This document shows, piece after piece, positions 18,442-45,035 of a DNA stretch of 64,000 bases. The stretch is from Candidatus Babeliales bacterium (lineage in GTDB: Bacteria; Babelota; Babeliae; Babelales; JANWKD01), in assembly GCA_963722255.1 (NCBI GenBank), contig CAVRJO010000001.1, forward strand, positions 416,001 to 480,000, read 5' to 3'. Position 1 is the stretch's first letter. Every line of letters starts with the position of its first letter. The notes beneath the pieces were generated by a model. The model saw only the letters and a list, made by a program, of their open reading frames with translations. It searched no databases and was not told the DNA's origin. Made by a program: the position numbers and the translations under genes.

Positions 18442-19626
18442 ATGCCCATGAAGCGATTACCAATTTTTATAAGTAATTTTCCAGAAATGATTAATGATGA
18501 GTATGCTTACATAGATAAAACTGAACAGATTTATAATCTGGTCAAAAATAAGGGATTTTATTTTCTTTCGCGTCCTCGTCGTTTTGGTAAATCACTCCTT
18601 GTTTCTACCTTAAAAGAAGTTTTTTTGGCAAATAAAAAGTTGTTTAACAATCTTTGGATTAGTAACAGCGATTATGTATGGGAAAAATACCCGATTATTG
18701 AAATCGATTTTTCACAGATACCGCGCTTAACAACAGATGAGTTTAGATCTGCGCTCAACCGGCATTTAAAAAACATAGCAGCCGAATATACTCTACTCCT
18801 TCCGGGCGATTTAAATACTCCTGAAGAAACATTGATAACATTGGTTAAAGGACTGAATAAACATACCCATAATAACATTGTCATTCTTATTGATGAATAT
18901 GATAAACCGATTATTGATCATATTCATAGCCATGAAGAAGCTACTAAGTATCAGGCAATTTTAAGAAGTTTTTACACAACCATTAAAAGTCTCGAGCACC
19001 ATCTTCATTTTGTTTTTCTTACCGGCGTCAGCAATTCCAAAAACATCGGTCTTTTCCGGAATTAATAACTTAAACGATATCTCTCTTAAACCTGAAGCTG
19101 CTCAGCTTTTAGGTTACACTCATGATGAAATACAGCATTATTTACACGAATATTGTGAAGAATTTGCACAAAAAGCTCATAAACCTCTCGAAGAAATTAC
19201 GAAACTACTCACCACATGGTATAATGGTTATAGATTTTCAAAATCACCAACTAAAGTATATAACCCTTTTTCAGTACTCTATTGCCTTCATGATAAAGAG
19301 TTTCAAAACTATTGGTTTGCTTCCGGCACACCAACGTTCCTTATAACATTGCTCAAAAAAGAGTATGAATATATTGAAAATATAGAAGAGATTGAACTTT
19401 CTCCTGAAAGCTTTGGCACGTTCGAACTCAATGATATTCCGCTTGTTCCTCTGCTTTTTCAAACGGGATACCTGACCATCAAAGATTTTAATGAGAGACC
19501 GGCATGTTTAAACTTGGTTTCCCGAATTGTGAAGTGCAAGAAACATACAAAGCCTTAATTGGTTTATCATTTATACATACCAATAATGAGATGCATTTAG
19601 AACATGTTGAAGAAGTTTTTAACTAA
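18442..19626 (+). pseudogene. AAA-ATPase/PD-(D/E)XK family paralogue with frameshifts and an internal deletion
   Basis: Nearly identical to 23675-25234 over the first ~700 nt; frameshifts near 19035 and 19497; jumps from FPN to the C-terminal IGLSFIH...EHVEEVFN*. Confidence 0.85.
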
Positions 19627-23674: not shown

Positions 23675-25234
23675 ATGAAACGATTACCGATTTTTATAAG
23701 TAATTTTCCAGAAATGATTAATGATGAGTATGCTTACATAGATAAAACCGAACAGATTTATAATCTGGTCAAAAATAAGGGATTTTATTTTCTTTCGCGT
23801 CCTCGTCGTTTTGGTAAATCGCTCCTTGTTTCTACCTTAAAAGAAGTTTTTTTGGCAAATAAAAAGTTGTTTAACAATCTTTGGATTAGTAACAGCGATT
23901 ATGTATGGGAAAAATACCCGATTATTGAAATCGATTTTTCACAGATACCGCGCTTAACAACAGATGAGTTTAGATCTGCGCTCAACCGGCATTTAAAAAA
24001 CATAGCAGCCGAATATACTCTACTCCTTCCGGGCGATTTAAATACTCCTGAAGAAACATTGATAACATTGGTTAAAGAACTGAATAAACATACCCATAAT
24101 AACATTGTCATTCTTATTGATGAATATGATAAACCGATTATTGATCATATTCATAGCCATGAAGAAGCTACTAAGTATCAGGCAATTTTAAGAAGTTTTT
24201 ACACAACCATTAAAAGTCTCGAGCGCCATCTTCATTTTGTTTTTCTTACCGGCGTCAGCAAGTTTGCAAAAACATCGGTCTTTTCCGGAATTAATAACTT
24301 AAACGATATCTCTCTTAAACCTGAAGCTGCTCAGCTTTTAGGTTACACTCATGATGAAATACAGCATTATTTACACGAATATTGTGAAGAATTTGCACAA
24401 AAAGTTCATAAATCTCCTCAAGAAATCATGCAACTACTCACTAGTTGGTACAATGGCTATAGGTTTTCTGAATTAACCACTAAAGTATATAACCCTTTTT
24501 CAGTGCTCTATTGCCTTTATGATAAAAAATTTCAGAACTACTGGTATGCTTCGGGCACACCAACGTTTCTTATAACACTGCTCAAAAAACAATATGAATA
24601 TATTGAAAATGTGGAAGAAAGTGAGCTTTCTCCTGAAAGCTTTGGCACCTTTGAACTCAATGATATTCCGCTTGTTCCTCTGCTTTTTCAAACGGGATAC
24701 CTGACCATCAAAGATTTTAATGAACAAACTGGCATGTTTAAACTTGGTTTCCCGAATTATGAAGTTAAAGAATCATTTACAAAGTTTATTGTAACAACGT
24801 TAGCCCAAGCTTCAATATCAACCGTTGATGCTGCACTTGGTAAGTTTCGTGCTGCTTTAAAAAACAATGATCTCGATTTATTTTTTAGGACCTTACAAAA
24901 TCTTTTTGCTCACGTCCCGTACTCTATTCTTAAAGAAAGCTATTACCATGCATTATTTCAATTTTTATTGCGACTCTTATCTATAGAGGCACAATCGGAA
25001 ATTTTAACCAATACCGGACGGATTGATACGGTTTTAATCACTAAAACTCATGTTTATATTTTTGAACTTAAACTTAACAAATCTCCGCAAGTAGCATTAC
25101 AACAGATTAAAGATAAAAAGTATTATGAACGATATCTTTCCAGCGGCAAACAGATCATCTTAGTCGGTTTATCTTTTATACATAGCGATGATGAGATGCA
25201 TTTAGAACACGTTGAAGAAGTTTTTAACTCATAA
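23675..25234 (+). CDS. AAA-ATPase-like domain plus C-terminal PD-(D/E)XK nuclease protein, intact
   Basis: YIDKT, RPRRFGKSL, LIDEYDKP, YNGY, GRID...IFELK, ALQQI..KKY. Confidence 0.9.
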   Translation: MKRLPIFISNFPEMINDEYAYIDKTEQIYNLVKNKGFYFLSRPRRFGKSLLVSTLKEVFLANKKLFNNLWISNSDYVWEKYPIIEIDFSQIPRLTTDEFRSALNRHLKNIAAEYTLLLPGDLNTPEETLITLVKELNKHTHNNIVILIDEYDKPIIDHIHSHEEATKYQAILRSFYTTIKSLERHLHFVFLTGVSKFAKTSVFSGINNLNDISLKPEAAQLLGYTHDEIQHYLHEYCEEFAQKVHKSPQEIMQLLTSWYNGYRFSELTTKVYNPFSVLYCLYDKKFQNYWYASGTPTFLITLLKKQYEYIENVEESELSPESFGTFELNDIPLVPLLFQTGYLTIKDFNEQTGMFKLGFPNYEVKESFTKFIVTTLAQASISTVDAALGKFRAALKNNDLDLFFRTLQNLFAHVPYSILKESYYHALFQFLLRLLSIEAQSEILTNTGRIDTVLITKTHVYIFELKLNKSPQVALQQIKDKKYYERYLSSGKQIILVGLSFIHSDDEMHLEHVEEVFNS

Positions 25235-30431: not shown

Positions 30432-31961
30432 ATGAAGAATTTACCACGAGATCTCAGTACCTTTAGTACCTTAATTACCAATAATTATGTTTATGTTGAT
30501 AAAACAGAACATATTTATAACTTGTATGCCACGGGTGATAGGTACCATTTTCTATCACGACCTCGTCGCTTTGGTAAATCACTTCTTATTTCAACGCTCA
30601 AAGAACTTTTTGAAGGGAATAAAGCCCTTTTTGAAAATTTGTGGATTAGTAATTCTGACTATGATTGGCAAAAATATCCCATAGTGCATCTTGATTTTGC
30701 TGCAATAGCGCAAAGAACTCCTCATGATGTAAGTAGCAGCCTTAATTACCATCTTGATGCAATTGCACATTCATATAGCCTCTCAGTTGAAGAGTGCAAA
30801 CTTCCTGAAGAAAAACTTGTTGCACTCGTTACAAAACTGGCACACTTTAATAAGGTAGTAATTCTTATTGATGAGTACAATTATCCTCTTTTAAGCCATT
30901 TAGCAACAGTAAAATTAGCTTCAGAACAAGAAAAGGTTCTCAAAAATTTTTATGGTGTTCTCAAAAGCCTTGATGCTCATTTGCGTGCTCTTTTTATTAC
31001 AGGGGTCAGCAAATTTTCTAAATCAACTATTTTTTCTGGCATCAATAATCTTATTGATCTTGGTATTAGTAGCAAAACAGCATGCCTGCTTGGCTTTACT
31101 GACCAAGAAATTAAACAGTATTTTCATGACCATATTGCTGCCTTTGCTCAAGCAAAAAAAAGAACACAGGCTTCAATCATCGCAGAAATGAAACGCTACT
31201 ACAATGGATATCGTTTCAGCCAAAATCCTATAACTGTCCACAATCCCTTTGGTGTTCTTTATTATTTGAAAGAACAAGAACTTAGAAACTACTGGTATGA
31301 ATCGGGCACACCGCTTATACTGGTAAATCTTCTTGATAAACAGCTTACAAGCCTTGAAACCATCGGACGAGTCGAATTTGAAGCAGAAACGCTTGATGCT
31401 TTTGATATGAGCAATATTCCTCTCATTATTCTTCTCTTACAAACAGGGTATTTAACCATTAAAGAATATGATCAAAAAACGAATAAATTTATTCTTGATT
31501 ACCCTAATGATTTTGTAGAAGAATCATTTAAAAAAAATGTTATTGAAGCACTTGCACATTCAAATAGTGTTACTATTGAACAATCCATTACGCTGTGCAG
31601 AGAAGCTTTTACCACTAACAATCTGGAAAAACTTAAAGATGCTTTGCATAATCTTCTTATTTACCTTCAATCGCCACTTTCGTTAGAGCCTAAAGATTTT
31701 TTTTATATCCTGTTTACTTTTCTTTTTTCATTACTTGATACAAGCATCACTAGTATAATTGTTAAATACAAGGATCATTTATTTCTTTCATTGACAACCG
31801 ATACTTTTTTCTATGAAGCAATTATATATTACACAAGACCCACGGCAGAAATACAAAAACCAGCGCAATCGCCCTATGCTAACTCAAACAAAACCTATGT
31901 ACGGTTTACTCTAACTATTAGCCAAACTCCTACAGGAGTCGCTATTGATTATACTCTATGA
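30432..31961 (+). CDS. Third AAA-ATPase-like paralogue; C-terminal nuclease motifs not recognisable
   Basis: YVDKT, RPRRFGKSL, LIDEY, YNGY present; no GRID/ELK motif. Confidence 0.85.
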   Translation: MKNLPRDLSTFSTLITNNYVYVDKTEHIYNLYATGDRYHFLSRPRRFGKSLLISTLKELFEGNKALFENLWISNSDYDWQKYPIVHLDFAAIAQRTPHDVSSSLNYHLDAIAHSYSLSVEECKLPEEKLVALVTKLAHFNKVVILIDEYNYPLLSHLATVKLASEQEKVLKNFYGVLKSLDAHLRALFITGVSKFSKSTIFSGINNLIDLGISSKTACLLGFTDQEIKQYFHDHIAAFAQAKKRTQASIIAEMKRYYNGYRFSQNPITVHNPFGVLYYLKEQELRNYWYESGTPLILVNLLDKQLTSLETIGRVEFEAETLDAFDMSNIPLIILLLQTGYLTIKEYDQKTNKFILDYPNDFVEESFKKNVIEALAHSNSVTIEQSITLCREAFTTNNLEKLKDALHNLLIYLQSPLSLEPKDFFYILFTFLFSLLDTSITSIIVKYKDHLFLSLTTDTFFYEAIIYYTRPTAEIQKPAQSPYANSNKTYVRFTLTISQTPTGVAIDYTL

Positions 31962-32551: not shown

Positions 32552-32628
32552 GTGCCCGTAGCTCAGTTGGATAGAGCAACGGATTTCTAATCCGTAGGTC
32601 ATAGGTTCGAATCCTATCGGGCACACCA
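32552..32628 (+). tRNA. tRNA-Arg(UCU)
   Basis: Acceptor stem GTGCCCG/CGGGCAC, anticodon arm ACGGA-TTTCTAA-TCCGT, GTTCGAATC T-loop, encoded CCA. Confidence 0.97.
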
Positions 32629-34083
32629 ATTTCTAGTTTTTACAGATTCAAGTATCATACCAAACACCGGATGTAGCTCTAGATCGAGGTTTCCATCTTT
32701 GAATGTACAGTTCGATAGTAAAGCCTCTAAGACTCTTCGTTTTTTCTCTGGATTTCCATTTTTAAACCACAGAGCGGCATTTTTGGCGAGTTCTAAAATA
32801 AAATAGGCATTTTCAAGATAATGGCCATCGGCCCTTTGTGCAGAAACAAGCTTCAAACTGAACTCTTCTTTTTCTGCGATCCATTGCCTAGTATGTTTTT
32901 GCCAAAACTCCTCACTAATTTTGCCATCAAGTTTATCAAGGTAGGCCTGATCAACTCTTTTTTGTAGAAGCTTAATCTGTTTTTCAAGCTCCCCTACCAA
33001 GTTATTATGATATTCGATCTTATCTTTGAAACTTTCACGCATAGCTTCCAAGACAATTTCTTGGACTTCATCAGTGATATTTATTTGGCCTAACAATGCT
33101 TCAAATTGCGCCTCTAAAGACTCTTGTCTAATATAACCCTGCTTGCAATTGCCCTTATAGCCAGTGCAATGATAGTAGATGTATTTGTTTTTCTTTAATT
33201 CAGCGGTCAATGAGCATCCACAAACTCCACAACTAATGAGATTAGTGTAAGGGAACATGCCTTTTTTTGATTTGCTTTTGCGTGGATTAATAAGAACGTT
33301 TTGGACTCGTTGAAATAGCTCTGGGCTAATTAATGGCTCATGTGAAGCGTTTTCATATTTTTTACCATTCCAATAGAATACGCCCGTATAAAATTCGTTT
33401 TTAAAAATAGTTTCTATCTTGCTGGTATAAAAATTTTTTCCATTTCTATACACCATACCATCAGCCAACATTTTCTTACGCAGAGCCAATAAGGAGTATG
33501 CTCCTGTTGCATACAATTCAAACATTTTTTTAACAAACGGAGCAGCATGAGGATCAACTCTTATCATGCTTTTTCCACTCTCACGTACGTTTAAATATCC
33601 ATATGGAGCGGATGATGGGTAAGTACCTTGAGAAGCTTTCTCGGTCATACCTTTTTTTACTTCTTCTGATAAGTTATCAACATAGTTTTTAGCCATTAAA
33701 GCTCTGATTCCAAAGACAAATTTTTCATTTGAGCGAGAATCCTTACTTAGTATCACATTTTCTTTTACAAGATGAATTGTTATACCTGAATAGATAATAA
33801 GTTCTTCAAGAAGAGCATAATCAGATATGTTTCTCAGTAAGCGATCTGTTTTTTCCACTAAAAGATGCTTAACGCTTTTATCTTCTTCAAGATATTTTAT
33901 CATCTTGTTAAATTGCGTTCGGCCTGCCTTTTTTGCCGTCTCGACATCAATAAACTCTTCAACGATTCTAAAGTTGTTTTTTGAAGCATACTCTTTTAAT
34001 AGCTTTAGCTGGGCAGGAATGGAAAAGCCTTCGTTTTCTTGGTCTTTTGATGATACTCGAGCATAGATGATAGCTTTATTCAT
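32614..34083 (-). CDS. Large serine recombinase (integrase)
   Basis: YARVSS catalytic motif, DRLLRN, APYGY, HEPLIS, Zn ribbon CGVCG...YYHC; last codons and stop lie within the tRNA. Confidence 0.95.
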   Translation of the reverse strand: MNKAIIYARVSSKDQENEGFSIPAQLKLLKEYASKNNFRIVEEFIDVETAKKAGRTQFNKMIKYLEEDKSVKHLLVEKTDRLLRNISDYALLEELIIYSGITIHLVKENVILSKDSRSNEKFVFGIRALMAKNYVDNLSEEVKKGMTEKASQGTYPSSAPYGYLNVRESGKSMIRVDPHAAPFVKKMFELYATGAYSLLALRKKMLADGMVYRNGKNFYTSKIETIFKNEFYTGVFYWNGKKYENASHEPLISPELFQRVQNVLINPRKSKSKKGMFPYTNLISCGVCGCSLTAELKKNKYIYYHCTGYKGNCKQGYIRQESLEAQFEALLGQINITDEVQEIVLEAMRESFKDKIEYHNNLVGELEKQIKLLQKRVDQAYLDKLDGKISEEFWQKHTRQWIAEKEEFSLKLVSAQRADGHYLENAYFILELAKNAALWFKNGNPEKKRRVLEALLSNCTFKDGNLDLELHPVFGMILESVKTRNWCAR

Positions 34084-34092
34084 GTTTATAAT

Positions 34093-34452
34093 CTAATTAT
34101 TATAGTAGCTTTCAAGACCAATTTTTCTTTTGAACCATATCCACCAGGTTGTATTTTTATTATTACGTTTTTCTTCTGGTTTATATGTATAGGTATCGTT
34201 TTGACCATCACAATAACCGATGGGCTTAAAATAAATTATTTTTTCAGAAGTCCCCGTGAAATGCTTATAACCATCATAGCTATCTGTTACCCAAGCTTCA
34301 CCTGTTTGTTGATCAATAACTACAGAACCAGTAGAACTAAAACTTGCAACCTGGTATTTATTATGACTTTGGTTCATAACAAGAAATAAAATAAAAATAA
34401 CTAGAACTGTAGCCCAATTGATACTATCGATATTATCCATTTTCATCCTCAT
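34093..34452 (-). CDS. Hypothetical membrane-anchored protein
   Basis: N-terminal TM; coupled to the upstream ORF. Confidence 0.65.
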   Translation of the reverse strand: MRMKMDNIDSINWATVLVIFILFLVMNQSHNKYQVASFSSTGSVVIDQQTGEAWVTDSYDGYKHFTGTSEKIIYFKPIGYCDGQNDTYTYKPEEKRNNKNTTWWIWFKRKIGLESYYNN

Positions 34453-34715
34453 TTGCTTCTTGCATATGGATTAACAAACTTATATCCATTGCTTGGCTTA
34501 AAATGGCCTCGTGTAGTTTTTGTTTTAATGCGACCATTTACGCTACTTTTTTGACCAAATCCAACATAAGGGGCTTTTGTAGTATAGCCCTTATTGACTT
34601 TGAATGATGACCTTCTAGCAGCATGTATTTCAATAATGCAGATGCATGTAATAACAAAAAAAATCGGGTTAACAAACCTCTTCATTTTAATCCTATCAAT
34701 TAGATTGTTGAACAA
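34449..34715 (-). CDS. Small exported basic hypothetical protein
   Basis: Signal peptide, G.FK..NG..FV.PY.RS tail. Confidence 0.6.
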   Translation of the reverse strand: MFNNLIDRIKMKRFVNPIFFVITCICIIEIHAARRSSFKVNKGYTTKAPYVGFGQKSSVNGRIKTKTTRGHFKPSNGYKFVNPYARSK

Positions 34716-34730
34716 ATTTCATGCCCATTG

Positions 34731-34928
34731 CTACTCAACATCTTCTTGTGAACTTTTCCTAAATTCTTTCTCATAAAGTAACCGAATCCCCTCACAAAAC
34801 AAGGTAGATTTATCGGTTTTATTGCGATTTCTAAGCCGCTTAATGAATACCTCATTTAACAAAGTTTCATCTTCCTCTGACATATAAACAGTAGTTTTCA
34901 TTTTTTTAAGTAATTCTGATTCTTGCAT
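34731..34928 (-). CDS. Ribbon-helix-helix (CopG-like) regulator
   Basis: KTTVYMSEE...L...DKSTLFCEGIRLL pattern. Confidence 0.65.
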   Translation of the reverse strand: MQESELLKKMKTTVYMSEEDETLLNEVFIKRLRNRNKTDKSTLFCEGIRLLYEKEFRKSSQEDVE

Positions 34929-35143
34929 GTTATTTTCCTGATAAAAGTAAATTTTACTAGGTTAAATATACTTAAAATCCAACGATGCGTCAAGCCACTG
35001 CGCCACCATAAATCCATAACCATTTGACGGCATTTTTCTAAATGATACGATTAATATAAAACACTATTGATTTATAACAATCTAATACATAATTAATATT
35101 TACAATTTGTCGTTATTATTTGCAGCCTTATATGAAGGATATT

Positions 35144-35932
35144 ATGAAAAAACTATTAATTATTGGAATAATTTTTGTGGCAATCTCGAGTACATCATTT
35201 ATTTTGCTAAAATATGTCGCTCAAATAGATACACAATCCTCAAAATATAATATCGATAATAATGAGTTCATCTTTACAAAAGAAGAAGAAAAAGCTCTTT
35301 CACAAAAAAAATATGATTCAATGGATGATTTAATAGTAGATGCGCATTATGGCAATCCTGGAGCTCTATGGATGTTGGGTATGAGCATGCTTACAGGTAG
35401 TGCTGGTTTTCATTTAGATACAGAATCAGCAAATAGTTATTTTGCTCAATCAGCCTCTCTTGGTTTTGCTCCATCTATCAATCAGGTCCACTTCATGTAT
35501 TTAATCGATCTTGAAAATCCTTTTCTCGCCCTTATTTATCTTAACCTTACAGTATCTAGCGGTCATATTGAACTTGCAGGCTATTATAGTAAACTTCGAG
35601 CTGAATTCATAAAAATATATGGGCTAAATACTATGAATGAAATCGAAAAAATAGCGATACACAAAAAAACATTAATTTCTAAATTCTGCAAAAAAATTCA
35701 AGATGATCCATCAAAGTTTATATATCTTACGATGTCTGAATCTGACGGTCTTATAGGAGAAGATGTTCTTTTTGATATGAATTATTGGGAAGGCATAAGA
35801 AATGGCAGCATTGTTACGGGAAATTTAGAAGATTGGCTTAGAATGCCTGATAACTATTGCCTCAAAATTGAAAGGCTCGCTCAAAAAGCAAATCGCAATA
35901 TTGGAAGATTTGCATCATATGTTGATAATTAA
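35144..35932 (+). CDS. Membrane-anchored Sel1-like repeat protein
   Basis: AHYGNPGALWMLG...ANSYFAQSASLGF; AAGGA RBS before ATG 35144. Confidence 0.65.
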   Translation: MKKLLIIGIIFVAISSTSFILLKYVAQIDTQSSKYNIDNNEFIFTKEEEKALSQKKYDSMDDLIVDAHYGNPGALWMLGMSMLTGSAGFHLDTESANSYFAQSASLGFAPSINQVHFMYLIDLENPFLALIYLNLTVSSGHIELAGYYSKLRAEFIKIYGLNTMNEIEKIAIHKKTLISKFCKKIQDDPSKFIYLTMSESDGLIGEDVLFDMNYWEGIRNGSIVTGNLEDWLRMPDNYCLKIERLAQKANRNIGRFASYVDN

Positions 35933-35933
35933 T

Positions 35934-36257
35934 ATGAAAAATATTACTAAATCATGTTTATTTATAGTACTTATCTCTGTGTTAACAATGTTCATTAAGC
36001 GTTCTAATGAAAATTGCTATGACGATAATTTCATTCCTTATGGAATAAAGGCTTTTGATGTTTTTGTTTACAATACTAAGACAGACAAAGAATATTTCGC
36101 TGGTAGTATTGGAACAGATTACACTAACTCTCAAATGAGCCTAAGTAATGCCCAAAGTTTAGCATACGATTTTGCAGAAGCTCATCACCTGAAGAATTGG
36201 GACTATCTTTGTTGCACAGTAACTAATTCATCAAATTGTGTTACAAAAGTTAAGTAG
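35934..36257 (+). CDS. Hypothetical protein with N-terminal anchor
   Basis: ATG 35934 directly after the upstream stop; Cys-rich C-terminus. Confidence 0.6.
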   Translation: MKNITKSCLFIVLISVLTMFIKRSNENCYDDNFIPYGIKAFDVFVYNTKTDKEYFAGSIGTDYTNSQMSLSNAQSLAYDFAEAHHLKNWDYLCCTVTNSSNCVTKVK

Positions 36258-36466
36258 GTATAGATTAACCATAAATGGAGGCGATAAATTTATGAATAGC
36301 AATAAAGCTTTCTCTTTTCGGAGTTATTATGAATAAAGTTATAAAAACATTTCTTTATATAGTATTCTGGCCATATTTGATTTATAAAATAATTGATAAA
36401 TTTGATTTATAATTATTTATCTGTTTTTGCGTTTGCTTAGATATTTCGATAAAAGGAAAAATAGCA

Positions 36467-37096
36467 ATGACCCACTGGGGCTGGTACTGGAAAATTAAAC
36501 GTAAGCATGAACCAAAAGCATTATGTAATTCGTGGCACTTTAATGAAATTGATTCATTTCGAATGTTTAAGAACAAAAGATTAATTCAACTGATTAAAGA
36601 AAGCAGCGACCGTACTAGTTTTGAAATTCCATCATATAACCTCAAAGCAACACTACTAGATAATGATAGTTTGAATGTAACGTATAATAATGGTTCTTAT
36701 GTTATTCCCACAGAAAAAAAGCCTTGCAATTATGGTGGGTATTATTACTTTTTTCATTGCCCCAAATGCGAAAAAAGAATGCGGAAATTATATTGTATGC
36801 AAGGAGAGTATCTTTGTCGGAAATGCTTAAATCTTGGTTACCTTACACAGCGTCTTAGTGCTTCAAATCGATCGCTATTAATGGCAGGCAAAATCAAAAT
36901 GATACTAGAAAACAAAAGTGGTTCTCTTGATAGAAAACCACCTTGGATGAAGAGAAAAACATTCAAAAATCTAAAAGATAAGCACTTTGAATATTATGAA
37001 ATTAAATTTGTAAGAGCACTGCGTGATGAGCTTATCATGTATTATCCAAAACAAAGTGCATTGATTGGATTATACTCCATTCCCCCCTTCAATTAG
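36467..37096 (+). CDS. Hypothetical Zn-ribbon protein
   Basis: YFFHCPKC...LY...YLCRKCLNLGY...KPPWM. Confidence 0.7.
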   Translation: MTHWGWYWKIKRKHEPKALCNSWHFNEIDSFRMFKNKRLIQLIKESSDRTSFEIPSYNLKATLLDNDSLNVTYNNGSYVIPTEKKPCNYGGYYYFFHCPKCEKRMRKLYCMQGEYLCRKCLNLGYLTQRLSASNRSLLMAGKIKMILENKSGSLDRKPPWMKRKTFKNLKDKHFEYYEIKFVRALRDELIMYYPKQSALIGLYSIPPFN

Positions 37097-38296
37097 TCTC
37101 TTCATTAATCTTAAACCATTTTGCAATTCACCTGTTTTAGCGCGGAGTGAATTTGGCCCTAAGCTGATTTCATTTACAAGATCTTCATAAACAAACCTAC
37201 TTACTGTCCGTTCGCTGATGTAATGTTGTATAAAATTAATTAACGCCTGTTCTTCTTCGCTCCATTCAGGCTTTATTAAGTGTAAATTATTTTGTATTTG
37301 TGTTGGTAACTTTTCTATAATCCAAGCTCTAAGATCTAGTCCTTGTTCTATTGCTTCCCCAATATCTTTACCGATGATAGTAGGATATCTTTGTGCGTGA
37401 GAATAAAGCTGCTTCCATTTATCAAACATGCTATTTCCGGCATCGTCATTATCATGACAAATAAGCAAAACAGTTTTATTACGAGCCAAATGATCAGTTA
37501 CAGGATCAGGTTTTTTGGTACAGCCACCGACAGCTACAATAACGGCAAAATCACCTACAGAATGATGTAATGCATATGCATCGAGTTCAGACTCAACAAC
37601 AACCATTACGGGATGTTTTTTATTGCCAATTATATTAAGGCCATTCATGCTTTCCGATATAGCAACATACTTGGGCAATTCGTCATTTATTTTCCAATCC
37701 CTACGTCGAATTTTTAACCGAATAACCTGATCTTCCTGTTCAATGGTTGGTATAACTATTCCAGCAGGTAACCAGATGTCTTTTTTTAGGCCCCAATCAG
37801 ATCCATACAAGCTTTTGTTTTCAGTAAGCCCCCCTATTTTATATTTTTTGATTGCCTCAATAGGCAAGCCACGCTTATTTAGCACCTGCAAAATATCTTC
37901 TTGCGATAGCATGATCTCATGTGCTTCTTGTACAATCCCCCATGCCTGTTGCATCCAACCATTTGAAGGTTTATTAAGCGTCATAATTGGACTTTCATTT
38001 TTTTTAGTTATAAAAATAGCCGATTTTTGGTCAAGAAGTTTGGCGCCGACATATTCAGCAGCTTCTTTAAAGGAATAACCAAGAAATTCAATACAAAATT
38101 GTATAGAATCACCTCGAGCATCACACTGACGACAAAAATAATAACCGATACAATTCTTTTGTTGCTTGTTCGGTTGAATAACAAAGCGATCTTTACCTCC
38201 GCATTCGGGACAGGAAGAATGGTATTCTCCGCCTTGTGTTGTTGCCACCCATTTAGCCACAATACCTATTCTTTTAACAAGCTCGATTAAAACCAT
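37070..38296 (-). CDS. DnaG-like primase (Zn ribbon plus TOPRIM)
   Basis: CPECGGKDRF...CRQC, VVESELDA, CHDNDDAG, KDIGEA. Confidence 0.85.
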   Translation of the reverse strand: MVLIELVKRIGIVAKWVATTQGGEYHSSCPECGGKDRFVIQPNKQQKNCIGYYFCRQCDARGDSIQFCIEFLGYSFKEAAEYVGAKLLDQKSAIFITKKNESPIMTLNKPSNGWMQQAWGIVQEAHEIMLSQEDILQVLNKRGLPIEAIKKYKIGGLTENKSLYGSDWGLKKDIWLPAGIVIPTIEQEDQVIRLKIRRRDWKINDELPKYVAISESMNGLNIIGNKKHPVMVVVESELDAYALHHSVGDFAVIVAVGGCTKKPDPVTDHLARNKTVLLICHDNDDAGNSMFDKWKQLYSHAQRYPTIIGKDIGEAIEQGLDLRAWIIEKLPTQIQNNLHLIKPEWSEEEQALINFIQHYISERTVSRFVYEDLVNEISLGPNSLRAKTGELQNGLRLMKRLIEGGNGV

Positions 38297-38328
38297 AAAC
38301 TACCTACATGTTATTAATTACCCGAATC

Positions 38329-38562
38329 TGCCCAGATGATGTCCAAGCACAAGACACACCAAAAAGCTGATCCAATCAAACATGTCCATATGGTCCATAC
38401 TTACCATCATCATTCTTATTGTTAAATTTCTTTTTGTTTTTACAGGTATTTCTTTTATGTTTTTTGCACAGATAAAATAATGCATGGTCAGTATGGCCGT
38501 CATGGACATAGCCTTTTCAATAGGGGATTTTTACATTTTTAAATCATGGACACAATTGGCCA
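38329..38562. other. Putative replication origin of the element
   Basis: Inverted arrays of TGTCCA-like and TGGACA-like motifs at 9-bp spacing around an AT-rich core. Confidence 0.5.
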
Positions 38563-38564
38563 CA

Positions 38565-40175
38565 CTACAGTTCATCATTAGAGTTATAGGTGTCATTCCA
38601 AATCCTTTCTGTTTCTTTGAACGCCTTACAAAATTCCTTGCGAGTTTGCTCTAGGGATGGAAATATATATTCTCTCACACGCCTGCATTGTATGCTTCTG
38701 CGAGTTTCAGATGTCGATGGGATAAGCTTTTTAAGGGTCATACCAAATTGATTATTTGATTCTGCTTTATGGCCATTGATTCGACACCACGCAACATAAT
38801 CATCGTAAACATCTTTTTTTGGAATTTGTGATTGCCAGACGCCACTTCCAATATTATTATTTTGTCTATTATCATCATCAATCATTCCAATATAGAAACT
38901 ACCATCAAGTAGAGCTTCATAAATATACATCTCAGCAGAAGTTGAACTGCGAAGTTTTATATCAAATGCAGCATCACTAGCAGGTATTTTGCGTGGGTCA
39001 AAATCCGTTAAATCTTCATTAAGTAAATCATAAAGGAGAGCCTCATAACCGCCATCTGTAAGCTGGGTATCTAAAGCCTTAAAATACTCATGATCTTCTT
39101 TACGCTCTTCTGATACACGTAAGACAAAAAAACGTCTATCATCTCGATCAAGGTGAACAGGCCAGTCTTCATTACTGCTCATAATCACATGCTTATAGTT
39201 TCTTACCAAAATTCTGTCTTTACCTTTTGCTTCTATAAGACATGTCTCCTCAGTTATCATCGCTTTAAGAATACCTATCTCTTTTCTATGACCACCCCAA
39301 AATGATTCATTAGCATGAATAAGAACTGCATTTTTTAGATGAAAATTAAAATGCGAAACAAGCTCATATACGTTGCCTAAAGGCGCATAGTGTAGCCCTA
39401 ATAAAACCCCCAATGGATTAACAAAACTGTTTTTACCAACCCCTTGTGTTCCACAAAGCACTAATGCTGTATGCACCCTATCAGGATGCTGAAATATGTA
39501 AGCAAGCCATTTGCGCAAATACAAATAATTACTCGGGTTTTTGGCACATATATTATCGCTAACATGATCCCAATAAAGTGAAGCTGATCCCTGTTTTGGT
39601 TCTTTTGCAAAACCTTTCCATATATTATAAAGACCTTTTGCCTCAATAATTTTTGGATCAGTTGCCGGATCGAAAGTAATGTTTATGTATTCTCGCCTAG
39701 ACGAACTTTTAAGCCAAATCTCTGCTTTAGTCTTCATCTTACCATCGGGACAGCTTACTTGTTTGTTTTCATACTGACTTTTAAAAGATGCCTTACTTTC
39801 AAGAACGAAGTTTTTTCCACCAAAATTAAAATCTTCTTTTTCTGTAAGGATATAAAACTGATCGGTGTGCATTACTGCATGTTTTTGATTAAGTTCATTA
39901 ACAACGTCATCTTCAATCCAAAGAATAGATCGTTCTTCTTCAAGACTACGAAAAGCATTCTGCAACATGATAATGTTCGATGCTTCTGCTTGCCCAATAT
40001 CATCTTCGATTTCTATTGCTAAAAAATCTTTAATTGATTGAGCACCATATCCTATTGCAGCTTTTTCTTCACATAGCTTCTTTTCTTTTTCAAACCATGC
40101 ATCTTTGAGAGCGTCAACATCAATTTTTGGTAAACGCGCTTTTGTATCGTGTCTTTTTGTGGTATCATCGTACAT
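38565..40175 (-). CDS. SF3-type (DUF5906-like) primase-associated helicase
   Basis: Walker A GTQGVGKN, HANE, IEAKG, MSSN, DDRRFFVL, C-terminal winged-helix-like region. Confidence 0.85.
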   Translation of the reverse strand: MYDDTTKRHDTKARLPKIDVDALKDAWFEKEKKLCEEKAAIGYGAQSIKDFLAIEIEDDIGQAEASNIIMLQNAFRSLEEERSILWIEDDVVNELNQKHAVMHTDQFYILTEKEDFNFGGKNFVLESKASFKSQYENKQVSCPDGKMKTKAEIWLKSSSRREYINITFDPATDPKIIEAKGLYNIWKGFAKEPKQGSASLYWDHVSDNICAKNPSNYLYLRKWLAYIFQHPDRVHTALVLCGTQGVGKNSFVNPLGVLLGLHYAPLGNVYELVSHFNFHLKNAVLIHANESFWGGHRKEIGILKAMITEETCLIEAKGKDRILVRNYKHVIMSSNEDWPVHLDRDDRRFFVLRVSEERKEDHEYFKALDTQLTDGGYEALLYDLLNEDLTDFDPRKIPASDAAFDIKLRSSTSAEMYIYEALLDGSFYIGMIDDDNRQNNNIGSGVWQSQIPKKDVYDDYVAWCRINGHKAESNNQFGMTLKKLIPSTSETRRSIQCRRVREYIFPSLEQTRKEFCKAFKETERIWNDTYNSNDEL

Positions 40176-40195
40176 ATAAAGTCCTCTACTTATTT

Positions 40196-40230
40196 AAAAA
40201 GTCACAGGTTGGAACTATGTGACTTTTTTT
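40196..40230. terminator. Intrinsic terminator after the spoVG-like gene
   Basis: AAAAAGTCACA...TGTGACTTTTT with A/T tails on both sides. Confidence 0.7.
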
Positions 40231-40235
40231 ATTGG

Positions 40236-40505
40236 TTATTCAGTTTTTTGCATTACTTCTTCAAATTTTTTAGTTACCGCTTGTTCTATTTGAGTAGCTA
40301 TTTCTTTGTTTATTGGATAAAAAAAATTCAAATTATTTCGAGTATTTTTACGCATGGGATACGTTAGTCGATACCCACCCGATGGCCGTGTAAATATTCC
40401 TATCGAACCCAAATAAACGGCATCTTCAAGAACAAAGCTTGCAAAGCCAACAAGCCCGTTATGGGACTCAACGGGAACAATTTGAATTTCATTTATTTGT
40501 ATCAT
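40236..40505 (-). CDS. SpoVG-family nucleic-acid-binding protein
   Basis: GLVGFASFVLE..VYL.SIGI...YPMRK...FFYPINKE..QIEQAV. Confidence 0.8.
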   Translation of the reverse strand: MIQINEIQIVPVESHNGLVGFASFVLEDAVYLGSIGIFTRPSGGYRLTYPMRKNTRNNLNFFYPINKEIATQIEQAVTKKFEEVMQKTE

Positions 40506-40653
40506 TAGTTTTCCCCTTTCTTATATCCTCTTTCGGACGAAGGTCCATAACCGCTGCAAAAAAACCTACAAGCTGCTTACGCTCATCAGATGATAAGGGC
40601 CCAGGTTCTCTTGATTGAATATGTATTGTCATGGTTATTTTTTTTTCTTTCAT
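40489..40653 (-). CDS. 54-aa hypothetical protein, not in the ORF track
   Basis: MKEKKITMTIHIQSREPGPLSSDERKQLVGFFAAVMDLRPKEDIRKGKTNDTNK*, overlapping the spoVG start. Confidence 0.5.
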   Translation of the reverse strand: MKEKKITMTIHIQSREPGPLSSDERKQLVGFFAAVMDLRPKEDIRKGKTNDTNK

Positions 40654-40763
40654 AGAAACGAGTCTACGAAATGATTTGGGGTGCCGCTGGGGCGCCCCGT
40701 GAGGCTTATGTAATTAACAAAAACGGTGAATTAAAAAAGAAAAGTTCTTAATGAAGTAAATGA

Positions 40764-41978
40764 CTATTGTATTGAATACTTTGGATTAAGCCATATTTTT
40801 TTTATCGGGTTTTTAGCATCGGTGATTCTTGTTTTTTCAAATGCCAATGATAAGCCAATCTTTTTTAGTTGCTTATTTATAGACTTTCGCGTTTCATGCA
40901 GCTCATTCTCTTCTTGAATGCATAAATCTTCTGCAATAGGTAATCCAGCCACCTTCGACCATAAAATTTTATATGATATTGGTTCAGATGGGTTTTTAAT
41001 AAATGCTCGAACAAATCGTCCTGTACGATACTTTGTGTTAAAAGACATTTCGTCGATTCCGTATCGTACTATTACCGTTGTGCCTCGAGAAATAAATGAT
41101 AGGCATTGTTTTGTTGTTGATACAACAATCTTATTGTCATTGATCTCATTCTGTAAGAGCTTGCTGCTGCGAAAATTAAAGAAGATGTGATATCGATTGA
41201 CACCCTTGATTTAAGAAATTCCCATACACGATGCATATGAACCCTGACATTCTTCTATATCAAAAAATTTTTCATCAGATTGCGATTCTTCCATAGCTTT
41301 ATCAAAATTTTCAGCATCTAAGCTTAGATAATAAGCCGCTGAATGATGATTACTTTGCAAGAAGCCCTGTATTTTATTCGGCCTACTCTTAAGTTCGTAA
41401 AATAAATAGAACCGAATAAGATAAGCAAAGCTATTATAAAGACTTGATTTTCTATCGCGATCAAAATTTATTATTTCTTGATGCATTCTTGAAAAACTTG
41501 GCGAAAATATATACTCAATAATATTATTGCCTTTAGTAAGCCTAATTAAATTCTTTAGAATTTGGGTATGTTTTGTTGGGTGATCATGTTTGATTAAGTT
41601 ACACATTTGACGAATAATTTCGTACATATCATATATCTGTTCCGCACTGTTGGCTGGGCATCGATTTTTAATTTTGTGAATTTCTTCAATACCTATAGAT
41701 AATATAGGAATAACAGCTTGATATCCCTCGATTAAAGCTATAGCTATTTCAATCTCACTCAAAGCTTTAACTTTAATCTCGACAAGTGGGATTAATGCTT
41801 CTCTGCCCATATTTGCTACAACGTGACGATCATTCTCTAGTATTGGACTTGTGGCAAGCTCTTTGGCAAATTCACTAGCTGCGGGCATATAGTTTTTTGG
41901 GCTTAATGCTATAAGGCTACGATCATATGCACCTTGCATATGATCATGAAGTTTTTTTGATTCTATGTTGTTCATCAA
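40764..41978 (-). pseudogene. ~404-codon gene interrupted by one in-frame TAA (41211-13); C-terminal part may be a winged-helix domain
   Basis: ORFs 41211-41978 and 40764-41048 are in frame and the 54 codons between them contain no stop. Confidence 0.7.
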
Positions 41979-42128
41979 TACACCTTCTTGAATAATTTAA
42001 TAAATATCAAATTATTTTATCACAACTTTTGATACCACTACCAACAATTTATATCACCGGTATTAGTTTCTTTATTGCAAAGATTATGCTTTCACTAATC
42101 GAGAAGTTGCGGAAGTACTCCGAAGGGC

Positions 42129-42410
42129 ACACCAGCCTACGCCAAGGCTACGGCTGGCACGCCAATTTTTTTAAGGAATGGCAAATAGATTTTAATATGG
42201 CGTAGGCTGTCCGCCGAAATAAGCGAGCATTAGCGAGACACGAAGGCTGGACTGGCGAGGTCAATAATTTGGTGAATCCTTTTTTGTGCTACGCTTTACA
42301 AGCTTACGGCTGGCGCGGCCAGTTTTTTAAACGAAATGATATTAATAGAAAATTGATAGCGTTTGCTGTCCGCCGGAGCCTTGGCGCAGGAGGACTGGCA
42401 GGTCAGTTAT
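42129..42410. repeat. Cluster of GC-rich REP-like units in inverted pairs upstream of GIY-YIG gene 1
   Basis: CCTACGCCAAGGCTACGGCTGGCA and inverted TGTCCGCCGGAGCCTTGGCGCAGG; two pairs. Confidence 0.85.
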
Positions 42411-42424
42411 TTAGGGACTTTACA

Positions 42425-42667
42425 GTGCATTATGTATACATAATTCAATCTTTAAATCTTCAAGATCAAATATATGTTGGCTGTACCGAAGATTTAAAAA
42501 AACGTCTTTCAAATCACAATACAGGCACTACACCCCATACAGCAAAATATTTACCTTGGAAATTAATTTTTTATGCAGGCTTTGAAAATAAGTTTAAAGC
42601 GTATGAATTTGAGAAATTTTTAAAATCTGGTTCTGGTAGAGAATTTAGAAATAAGAGATTGTTATGA
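42425..42667 (+). CDS. Stand-alone GIY-YIG nuclease, 80 aa
   Basis: GTG start; HYVYII, YVGCT, R...HN, W.L...A..FE..LK. Confidence 0.9.
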   Translation: MHYVYIIQSLNLQDQIYVGCTEDLKKRLSNHNTGTTPHTAKYLPWKLIFYAGFENKFKAYEFEKFLKSGSGREFRNKRLL

Positions 42668-44620: not shown

Positions 44621-44757
44621 ACACCAGCCTACGCCAAGGCTCCGGCTGGCACGCCAATTTTTTTAAGGAATGGCAAATAGATTTTGTAGCGTAGGCTGTC
44701 CGCCGTAGCTTGCCAAGCCGGAAGGCGTGGATAAGCGAAGGCTGGACTGGCAGGCCA
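44621..44757. repeat. Second REP-like cluster upstream of GIY-YIG gene 2
   Basis: 44621-44685 matches 42129-42193 at 64/65 nt; a further degenerate unit lies at ~45040-45070. Confidence 0.9.
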
Positions 44758-44792
44758 TTCTCTAATAAGTTTTTATCCTTTTGGTATATCAA

Positions 44793-45035
44793 ATGCATTA
44801 TGTATATATTATTCAATCAATTAATCACTCTAATGAGACATATGTTGGTTGCACTGAAAATTTAAAAAAACGTCTTTCTAATCACAATGCGGGTACAACT
44901 GCTCATACTGCCAAATACTTACCTTGGAAACTGATTTTTTATGCTGCTTTTGAAGATAAAATTAAAGCGTATGAGTTTGAAGAATTTTTAAAATCAGGAT
45001 CGGGTAGGGAATTTAGAAATAAAAAATTAATATGA
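44793..45035 (+). CDS. Stand-alone GIY-YIG nuclease, 80 aa, paralogue of 42425-42667
   Basis: MHYVYIIQS...YVGCTENLKKRLSNHN. Confidence 0.9.
   Translation: MHYVYIIQSINHSNETYVGCTENLKKRLSNHNAGTTAHTAKYLPWKLIFYAAFEDKIKAYEFEEFLKSGSGREFRNKKLI

Follow-up and report, generated by a model that had tools for sequence, protein, structure and literature searches.

Can the state of the DNA, integrated or excised, decide which version of its own integrase a mobile element makes, and with it the direction in which the enzyme works? This question is raised by a locus in a 64,000-nucleotide stretch of a Candidatus Babeliales genome (GCA_963722255.1, contig CAVRJO010000001.1, positions 416,001 to 480,000), hereafter the window, where the gene of a large serine integrase runs out of a 9.5-kb element into the antisense strand of a tRNA-Arg gene. 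An earlier note on this DNA had proposed that integration and excision rewrite the C-terminus of the enzyme, and that the excised form carries a degradation tag ending in LVKA. The analysis presented here bears out the rewriting, attributes the LVKA ending to a single missing base, and points to a conserved tail of about 27 residues that the integrase would lose upon integration and that may help to set its direction.

A mobile element at the 3' end of a tRNA gene

The integration target, tRNA-Arg(TCT) at 32552..32628 on the plus strand, is the only tRNA in the window, and its gene is intact. Its last 10 nucleotides, GGGCACACCA, at 32619-32628, form the left attachment core (attL), and the minus-strand TGG of this core (the anti-CCA) serves as the codon of a conserved integrase tryptophan. 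The same core occurs again on the plus strand at 42125-42134 (attR), at a distance of 9,506 bp. A 10-mer core alone is weak evidence, since about 0.5 copies are expected per genome, and the right boundary was therefore judged on three other supports. The DNA 3' of attR matches, in 23 of 24 nucleotides, a hairpin directly behind the CCA of tRNA-Leu(TAG) on contig C2 of the window's own genome (G000). At a related locus, L001, whose integrase is 84% identical, a homologous far site lies 10.7 kb away with the same gene behind it, and the DNA alignment crosses the site. In a genome of the same genus, G001, tRNA-Arg(TCT) is empty and is followed by sequence resembling the trailers behind several tRNAs of G000; synteny between the flanks of the window and this empty site was looked for and not found. 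On these comparisons the right boundary is real. On its host side, at 42135..42667 (plus strand), come the hairpin repeat that is usual behind tRNA CCA ends and an open reading frame (ORF) for a GIY-YIG nuclease. A second copy of the hairpin and GIY-YIG gene occupies 44627-45035, preceded by GACACCA and no tRNA.

Other candidate sites were rejected. A third copy of the core at 24553 was ruled out as an attachment site because it is a coding motif within an AAA-ATPase gene and lies upstream of the tRNA, and many short core matches at high-GC loci were dropped as chance. When attP/attB symmetry was scanned about every candidate crossover, no centre stood out (at most 10 of 25). The locus is a 9.5-kb integrative mobile element at the 3' end of tRNA-Arg, with its recombination site within its own serine-integrase gene, and the att core lies within the last codons of that gene as the earlier note had described.

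Recombination and the integrase C-terminus

In the integrated state the integrase (32614..34083, minus strand) has 489 amino acids, comprising Resolvase, Recombinase and zinc-ribbon domains and a coiled coil. The family matches PF00239, PF07508 and PF13408 are all above cut-off, the match to the phrog_95 integrase has an expectation value of 7e-82, and the YARVSS motif and four cysteines are invariant. The three domains and the catalytic serine together place the protein, by sequence, among the large serine integrases. Read from 34083, the frame crosses the left core and ends in the antisense of the tRNA at the TAG of 32614-16.

The same layout is found at 64 of 80 genome loci, where the integrase frame runs into the antisense of a tRNA or transfer-messenger RNA (tmRNA) of one of 10 kinds, with the anti-CCA TGG in frame at 61. 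The integrated protein ends in whatever the tRNA supplies, from 2 to more than 30 residues. Since these endings are so variable, the switch would consist in the loss of a tail and not in the gain of one, and the circle form is the informative product. A crossover in the 3' end of the integrase gene, with the stop codon supplied by flanking DNA, is the arrangement of the DsiB and rumA systems considered below. Rewriting of the integrase C-terminus by recombination is real and family-wide, and this part of the earlier proposal extends well beyond the window.

Two further integrases of G000 may be mentioned here. One, at C1:63752-65509, is 33% identical, has the same layout at tRNA-Arg(CCT), and is preceded by an 82% identical copy of a 65-amino-acid gene of the element. 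A search over 60 kb revealed no far site for this integrase (C1:63817-65271); of the 11-bp matches, the best looks like the 5' end of a group II intron. The other, at C2:568089-569624, is a fragmented remnant adjoining tRNA-Glu. Among the relatives, pairs of far att sites lie 1-3 kb apart on one contig (L129, L237/L239, L262/L281, L271/L285 and L277/L287), which suggests that a single tRNA has received insertions in tandem or retains relics.

A conserved tail and a missing base

In relatives, the far site holds an in-frame continuation of the integrase that would be read only from the circle. The shared tail, W-x4-[DE]-Y-[FL]-R-[TN]-F…I-K-Q-x-L-F-A, spans about 27 residues and is also carried by 11 of the 120 closest natural homologues (picked by eye, with two others that have unrelated ends left out). 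A protein search with the tail alone returned 2 proteins. The window has this tail as well, stranded at attR on the minus strand (42049..42123), where it reads SEYFRNFSISESIIFAIKKLIPVI up to a stop whose codon position matches that of L001. In this assembly, the sequence SEYFRNF…LIPVI is one base out of frame with the integrase and one frame away from the LVKA reading.

When the cores are joined as assembled, the circle-form integrase has 501 amino acids and ends in LVKA at a stop in 42084-86. The arithmetic behind both endings given by the earlier note is thus correct for the assembly as written, while LRSTSATSRLVKA does not stand as the tail of the element, because attR is one base short relative to its relatives. 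The off-frame reading, WCALRSTSATSRLVKA followed by a stop (42084..42134, minus strand), arises from a base missing between 42124 and 42123, which is where the DNA alignment with relatives places a gap. A variable-spacer pattern recovered 14 far sites in 13 of the 261 genomes of the class; all 13 sites outside the window measure 29 nucleotides, and the site in the window measures 28. A second pattern, whose list of sites overlaps the first, recovered 31 far sites in 23 of the 261 genomes; the spacing keeps the frame at 30 of them and is a base short at the remaining one. The motif W-x4-[DE]-Y is accordingly in frame at 13 of 13 sites outside the window and in 30 of 31 matches. Against a profile of 27 tails, the family-frame tail of the window scored +28 bits and the LVKA frame -31, with a leave-one-out range of -5 to 50, and the LVKA peptide matches no relative. 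The earlier note had suggested asking whether relatives conserve an in-frame tail with similar terminal residues, and had named a lack of such conservation as grounds for giving up the idea; with LVKA off-frame relative to 13 of 13 relatives, its own test goes against it.

The missing base could be an error or a mutation. Within 135 orthologues (152 kb, with ORFs drawn from 400 kb of G001), G000 shows 24 frame changes within 15 genes, which by their sequences include RpoB, EF-G, EF-Tu, L2, S7 and Ffh, although a few may have been counted twice between the neighbouring EF-G and EF-Tu; the reverse control gave 1 frame change in G001 in 152 kb. These counts were made at the protein level alone, as indel contexts compared between the DNA of G001 and G000 were spoiled by alignment gaps. 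The G000 assembly is therefore indel-prone, with about 1 frame change per 6 kb in conserved genes. Since a gene of about 400 amino acids in the element has an in-frame stop and one other genome also has a short site, real decay is possible too, and the balance between an assembly error and recent decay of a trapped copy is near even. Under either, LVKA is not a selected feature. As one base is missing in attR, excision as written gives both an off-frame LVKA ending and a mis-spaced attP arm. Recovery of the frame by a register slip at a GGG run or by ribosomal frameshifting was rejected by reasoning, because the base count is conserved and there is no canonical slippery site. The case is a warning about indel-prone assemblies, since the loss of one base was enough here to make a false degron look convincing; other frame-based findings in G000 need care.

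The tail itself is selected as protein. Codons 11-26 were left free by the search patterns; in the 18 of 21 tails that have at least 26 residues, their identities are 0.46, 0.58 and 0.36 at codon positions 1, 2 and 3, against 0.30, 0.29 and 0.29 further downstream; I21 is found in 14 and L25 in 13 of the 18. Beyond codon 10, a further 15 codons or more stay open in this frame in 18 of 21 tails, compared with 8 of 21 and 3 of 21 for the other two frames. The tail also overlaps a DNA feature. When the tRNA arms (19) are compared with the element arms (21), the best match, on one arm pair, occurs when they are offset by 5 bp (0.51, with no other shift above 0.34), as in large serine integrases. 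A 5-bp offset of the zinc-ribbon motif between attB and attP is described in the cited text for directional serine integrases (PMC3783163).

Predicted structure of the tail

Structure prediction was performed on P0009, a natural tailed relative that is 75% identical to the window integrase. With an alignment of 33 rows, all tailed, AlphaFold gave the tail a predicted local distance difference test (pLDDT) score of 81-87 and placed helices at 486-495 and 503-511. Predicted helices at 338-385 and 391-442 form a coiled coil in the zinc-ribbon domain, as expected of a large serine recombinase. Compared with solved integrases (Bxb1 9iu2, phiC31 9rah, 4kis/6dnw and 9dxh), the model has the same four-part fold (best Z 19.6, root-mean-square deviation 10.4, 453 residues aligned), in a match list that is dominated by residues 1-475 and thus gives no proof that the fold of the tail is new. 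In none of the full-length solved integrases does the alignment extend beyond model residues 472-483, which precede the crossover residue Trp486; the tailless form would therefore keep the whole canonical fold.

In a complex test, the tail was paired with residues 272-482 of the C-terminal domain. The score of 0.52, against 0.01 for the best of 3 controls, amounts to weak support: of the pairs used for calibration, 116 of 157 solved and 2 of 215 mismatched ones passed the mark, and the passes at or below 0.60 comprised 18 of the solved pairs and both mismatches. The runs agree in at least 83% of contacts, and the pLDDT of the partner is at least 64. In this predicted model, the tail likely packs on the zinc-ribbon/coiled-coil region.

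What the tail may do

The most favoured explanation, held at somewhat less than an even chance, is that the tail is a cis regulatory module, made only from the circle, that favours integration, and that its loss leaves an enzyme that excises or is less one-way. It is drawn from the conservation of the tail, the failure to find ClpXP, the structure prediction and the role in directionality that the cited text gives to the coiled coil of serine integrases (PMC3783163). Integration at the end of tRNA-Arg would strip the conserved two-helix tail of about 27 residues from the integrase. While present, the tail would lie against the zinc-ribbon/coiled-coil region, and the enzyme encoded by the circle would thereby be the one that integrates efficiently. 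The tailless enzyme of the integrated state, with every canonical domain retained, would favour excision or be less strictly one-way, either alone or together with a small element protein. Once excised, the circle would again encode the tail, tilting the enzyme towards attP x attB.

Several points weigh against this explanation. The direction of the tail's effect on activity is something that we infer. The first P0009 fold, for which tails were present in 11 of 61 rows, gave the tail a pLDDT of 38; one phiC31 sub-structure (rank 39) aligned up to residue 495; and the complex test, which paired two pieces of one chain from our own alignment, gave no interface. The first ten tail codons are also a DNA binding arm, which could by itself account for their conservation. 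Among 40 in-frame far-site tails, 13 have fewer than 24 residues, so some lineages or relics would be without the second helix. The sequences are related, and counts made on them are not independent. Small conserved genes of the element (those of 65 and 54 amino acids and the SpoVG-like gene) could be ordinary directionality factors; the earlier note's statement that none is recognisable holds for Pfam and PHROGs, whose matches mark no such factor among the element ORFs, and these genes stay candidates. Lastly, protein endings of the wider family are what a degron would predict: AA, VA or LA closes 11 of 55 non-tRNA ends and 2 of 86 integrated-type ends (Fisher p 0.0006), in a comparison of 141 of 149 representatives (8 under 470 amino acids dropped) whose kin are not independent.

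The tail could instead be mainly a proteolysis tag, making the circle-encoded integrase short-lived and the integrated one stable, with ClpXP as its reader where present and Lon or FtsH in this lineage. This is unlikely overall. Besides the enrichment just given, 7 of the 11 natural tailed close homologues end in alanine, compared with 15 of 272 ORFs of G001. Lon and FtsH favour hydrophobic tails, and in G000 both Lon and two long FtsH-family genes (frames of 764 and 918 amino acids) are present. A precedent is provided by mycobacteriophage BPs (PMC3694055), although neither attP in a repressor gene nor a ClpXP-type protease with a conserved tag was found here. The tails of the host class fit less well, in that 6 of the 40 in-frame far-site tails end in alanine and 1 in AA, VA or LA, many continue past LFA, the family-frame tail of the window ends in LIPVI, and the tail is predicted to be folded. 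The proteases argue in the same direction. A search for ClpX and ClpP that scored 10 control bacteria came up empty in all 41 host-order genomes, of which 38 are at least 90% complete, so a ClpXP switch does not fit this host; HslV was looked for in G000 and not found. A weaker form may still apply, with the tag contributing elsewhere in the family or acting via Lon or FtsH here. Regarding the host, literature on its proteases yielded nothing among the matches listed. G000 has tmRNA, yet ClpX and ClpP were not found in it; at C1:795232-797822, ARAGORN calls two tmRNA genes 2 kb apart, with the same kind of hairpin trailer behind each.

An equally modest chance is given to a lock of the kind known from Mx8. 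Here, the tail would complete and stabilise the C-terminal domain, the enzyme made after integration would have little activity either way, and the element would be stuck until a full-length copy, from an incoming circle or a tandem neighbour, acts. A folded tail and the several genomes with two far sites close together suit this idea, which has been proposed for DsiB (PMC3146451) and recalls the report that the integrated form of the Mx8 enzyme is less active (cited in PMC4701971). It sits less easily with the canonical domains, all of which end ahead of the crossover, and with the 11 of 120 natural tailed proteins on assembled contigs, which suggest that junctions re-form, from circle or tandem.

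The regulatory-module explanation also has a stronger form, which is to be regarded as doubtful. The integrase gene would carry its own directionality factor: the circle-only tail would dock on the zinc-ribbon/coiled-coil region and enforce integration, the gene cut at attP would encode the excisionase, and DNA state alone would set direction, with no separate factor. Were the tail to set direction, excision would be explained without a separate factor, and the direction of an integrase would be switchable by a segment of 27 residues.

It is improbable that the tail is incidental, a consequence of a compact element whose gene runs over attP, with conserved residues as a by-product of the DNA binding arm. 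The codons for D and R-T do coincide with an arm motif that mirrors the tRNA T-loop at the 5-bp shift, and in some host families many tails are short, with 11-21 residues. Codons 11-26, however, lie outside the arm motif and have a coding pattern, and the open frame past codon 10 is another point against this explanation. Least credible, and very improbable, is the version of the earlier note, in which the excised form ends in a Ser/Thr linker plus LVKA and is degraded by ClpXP or Tsp: the peptide, though Ala-ended and correctly derived, is off-frame by the counts and profile above in an indel-prone assembly, neither ClpX nor ClpP turned up in the host-order genomes searched, and the one Prc/Tsp homologue of G000 has an N-terminus that looks by eye like a signal peptide.

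Gene content of the element

In the circular form, the integrase gene joins the replication genes in a single run of the same orientation. Next to the integrase, two small accessory ORFs of 119 and 88 amino acids (34093..34715, minus strand) are patchy among relatives and belong to no family. The 65-amino-acid ORF upstream of the integrase (34731..34928, minus strand) is kept at 8 of 25 relative loci; judged by eye and without a family match, it looks like a ribbon-helix-helix repressor, and its copy beside the second integrase of G000 was noted above. Two cargo ORFs of 270 and 129 amino acids (35120..36257, plus strand) have no homologue at the 25 relative loci tested, and a 209-amino-acid Cys-rich ORF (36467..37096, plus strand) is common to 8 of 25.

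The replication genes, all on the minus strand, comprise a primase with a zinc ribbon and TOPRIM domain (37070..38296) and a DUF5906 or D5-like primase-helicase (38565..40175). They are followed on the same strand by a SpoVG-like protein (40236..40505), present at 16 of 25 relative loci, and a 54-amino-acid ORF (40489..40653) that is kept in L001, L116 and L118 and has no Pfam match. At 40764..41978 (minus strand) lies the homologue of a gene of 392-400 amino acids in relatives, split by the in-frame TAA at 41211-13 into ORFs of 255 and 94 amino acids. Upstream of it, in 41957-42030, a TG-A-TAAAAT extended -10-like motif is shared with L001; a consensus promoter scan of this region found no full site. 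The 65-amino-acid ORF, primase, D5-like helicase, SpoVG-like gene and split gene of about 400 amino acids form a module common to relatives; among named organisms, the nearest relatives belong to Candidatus Babeliae. Family searches gave no match to capsid or conjugation families among the element ORFs, and none for the proteins of 392, 65 and 54 amino acids. Elsewhere in the window, AAA-ATPase-like paralogues of the PF09820 type occur at 18442-19558, 23675-25234 and 30432-31961, the first split by a frame change.

Comparison with known systems

A literature search, to which subscription titles were mostly closed, found no description of this tRNA-targeting integrase family or its tail. The layout itself has precedents. 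In the ssrA islands of Dehalococcoides, dsiB always overlaps attL/attP at ssrA and is perhaps fully functional on the circle only (McMurdie et al. 2011, PMC3146451). The integrase described here resembles DsiB in gene layout, as the 3' end of a large serine recombinase gene lies over an att site where a tRNA-like gene ends, and reads on into the antisense of the latter. The cited text leaves the circle-form tail of DsiB undefined, and the comparison is one of gene arrangement. The two differ in that the target here is tRNA-Arg and not tmRNA, and in that this element has no second small recombinase like DsiA; families of the island module dsiB-dsiA-recF-parB-mom were not found among its ORFs.

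In the rumA integrative and conjugative elements (ICEs) of streptococci, the att site also lies inside a single serine-integrase gene whose C-terminus is exchanged on integration, and the authors suggest that the two forms differ in function (Ambroset et al. 2016, PMC4701971). Those elements are conjugative and target a protein-coding gene, whereas the present one targets a tRNA end and carries a primase/helicase module, and conjugation genes were not seen in it. The same paper relates that myxophage Mx8 has attP inside int and that the integrated form, with a shorter C-terminus, was reported to be less active; Mx8 uses a tyrosine recombinase in which 112 residues are replaced by 13, compared with about 24 replaced by 1 here. 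In the integration-dependent immunity of mycobacteriophage BPs, attP lies in the repressor gene and the lost segment is a proteolysis tag (PMC3694055). Integration likewise removes a C-terminal segment encoded across attP in both systems, although attP lies in the integrase gene here and ClpXP was not found in this host order.

According to the cited text, directional large serine integrases need a separate directionality factor (PMC3783163). The present family shares their four-part fold and the 5-bp offset between attB-like and attP-like arms, and differs from solved examples in a state-dependent tail without an aligned counterpart in the full-length rows. The layout is thus already in print for DsiB, the rumA ICEs and Mx8, and, as far as the cited texts go, its function in serine integrases is no more than suggested there. 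What this locus adds is a host order in which ClpXP was not found together with a tail predicted to be folded, so that a structural role becomes separable from a simple ClpXP tag and the idea of built-in directionality becomes directly testable.

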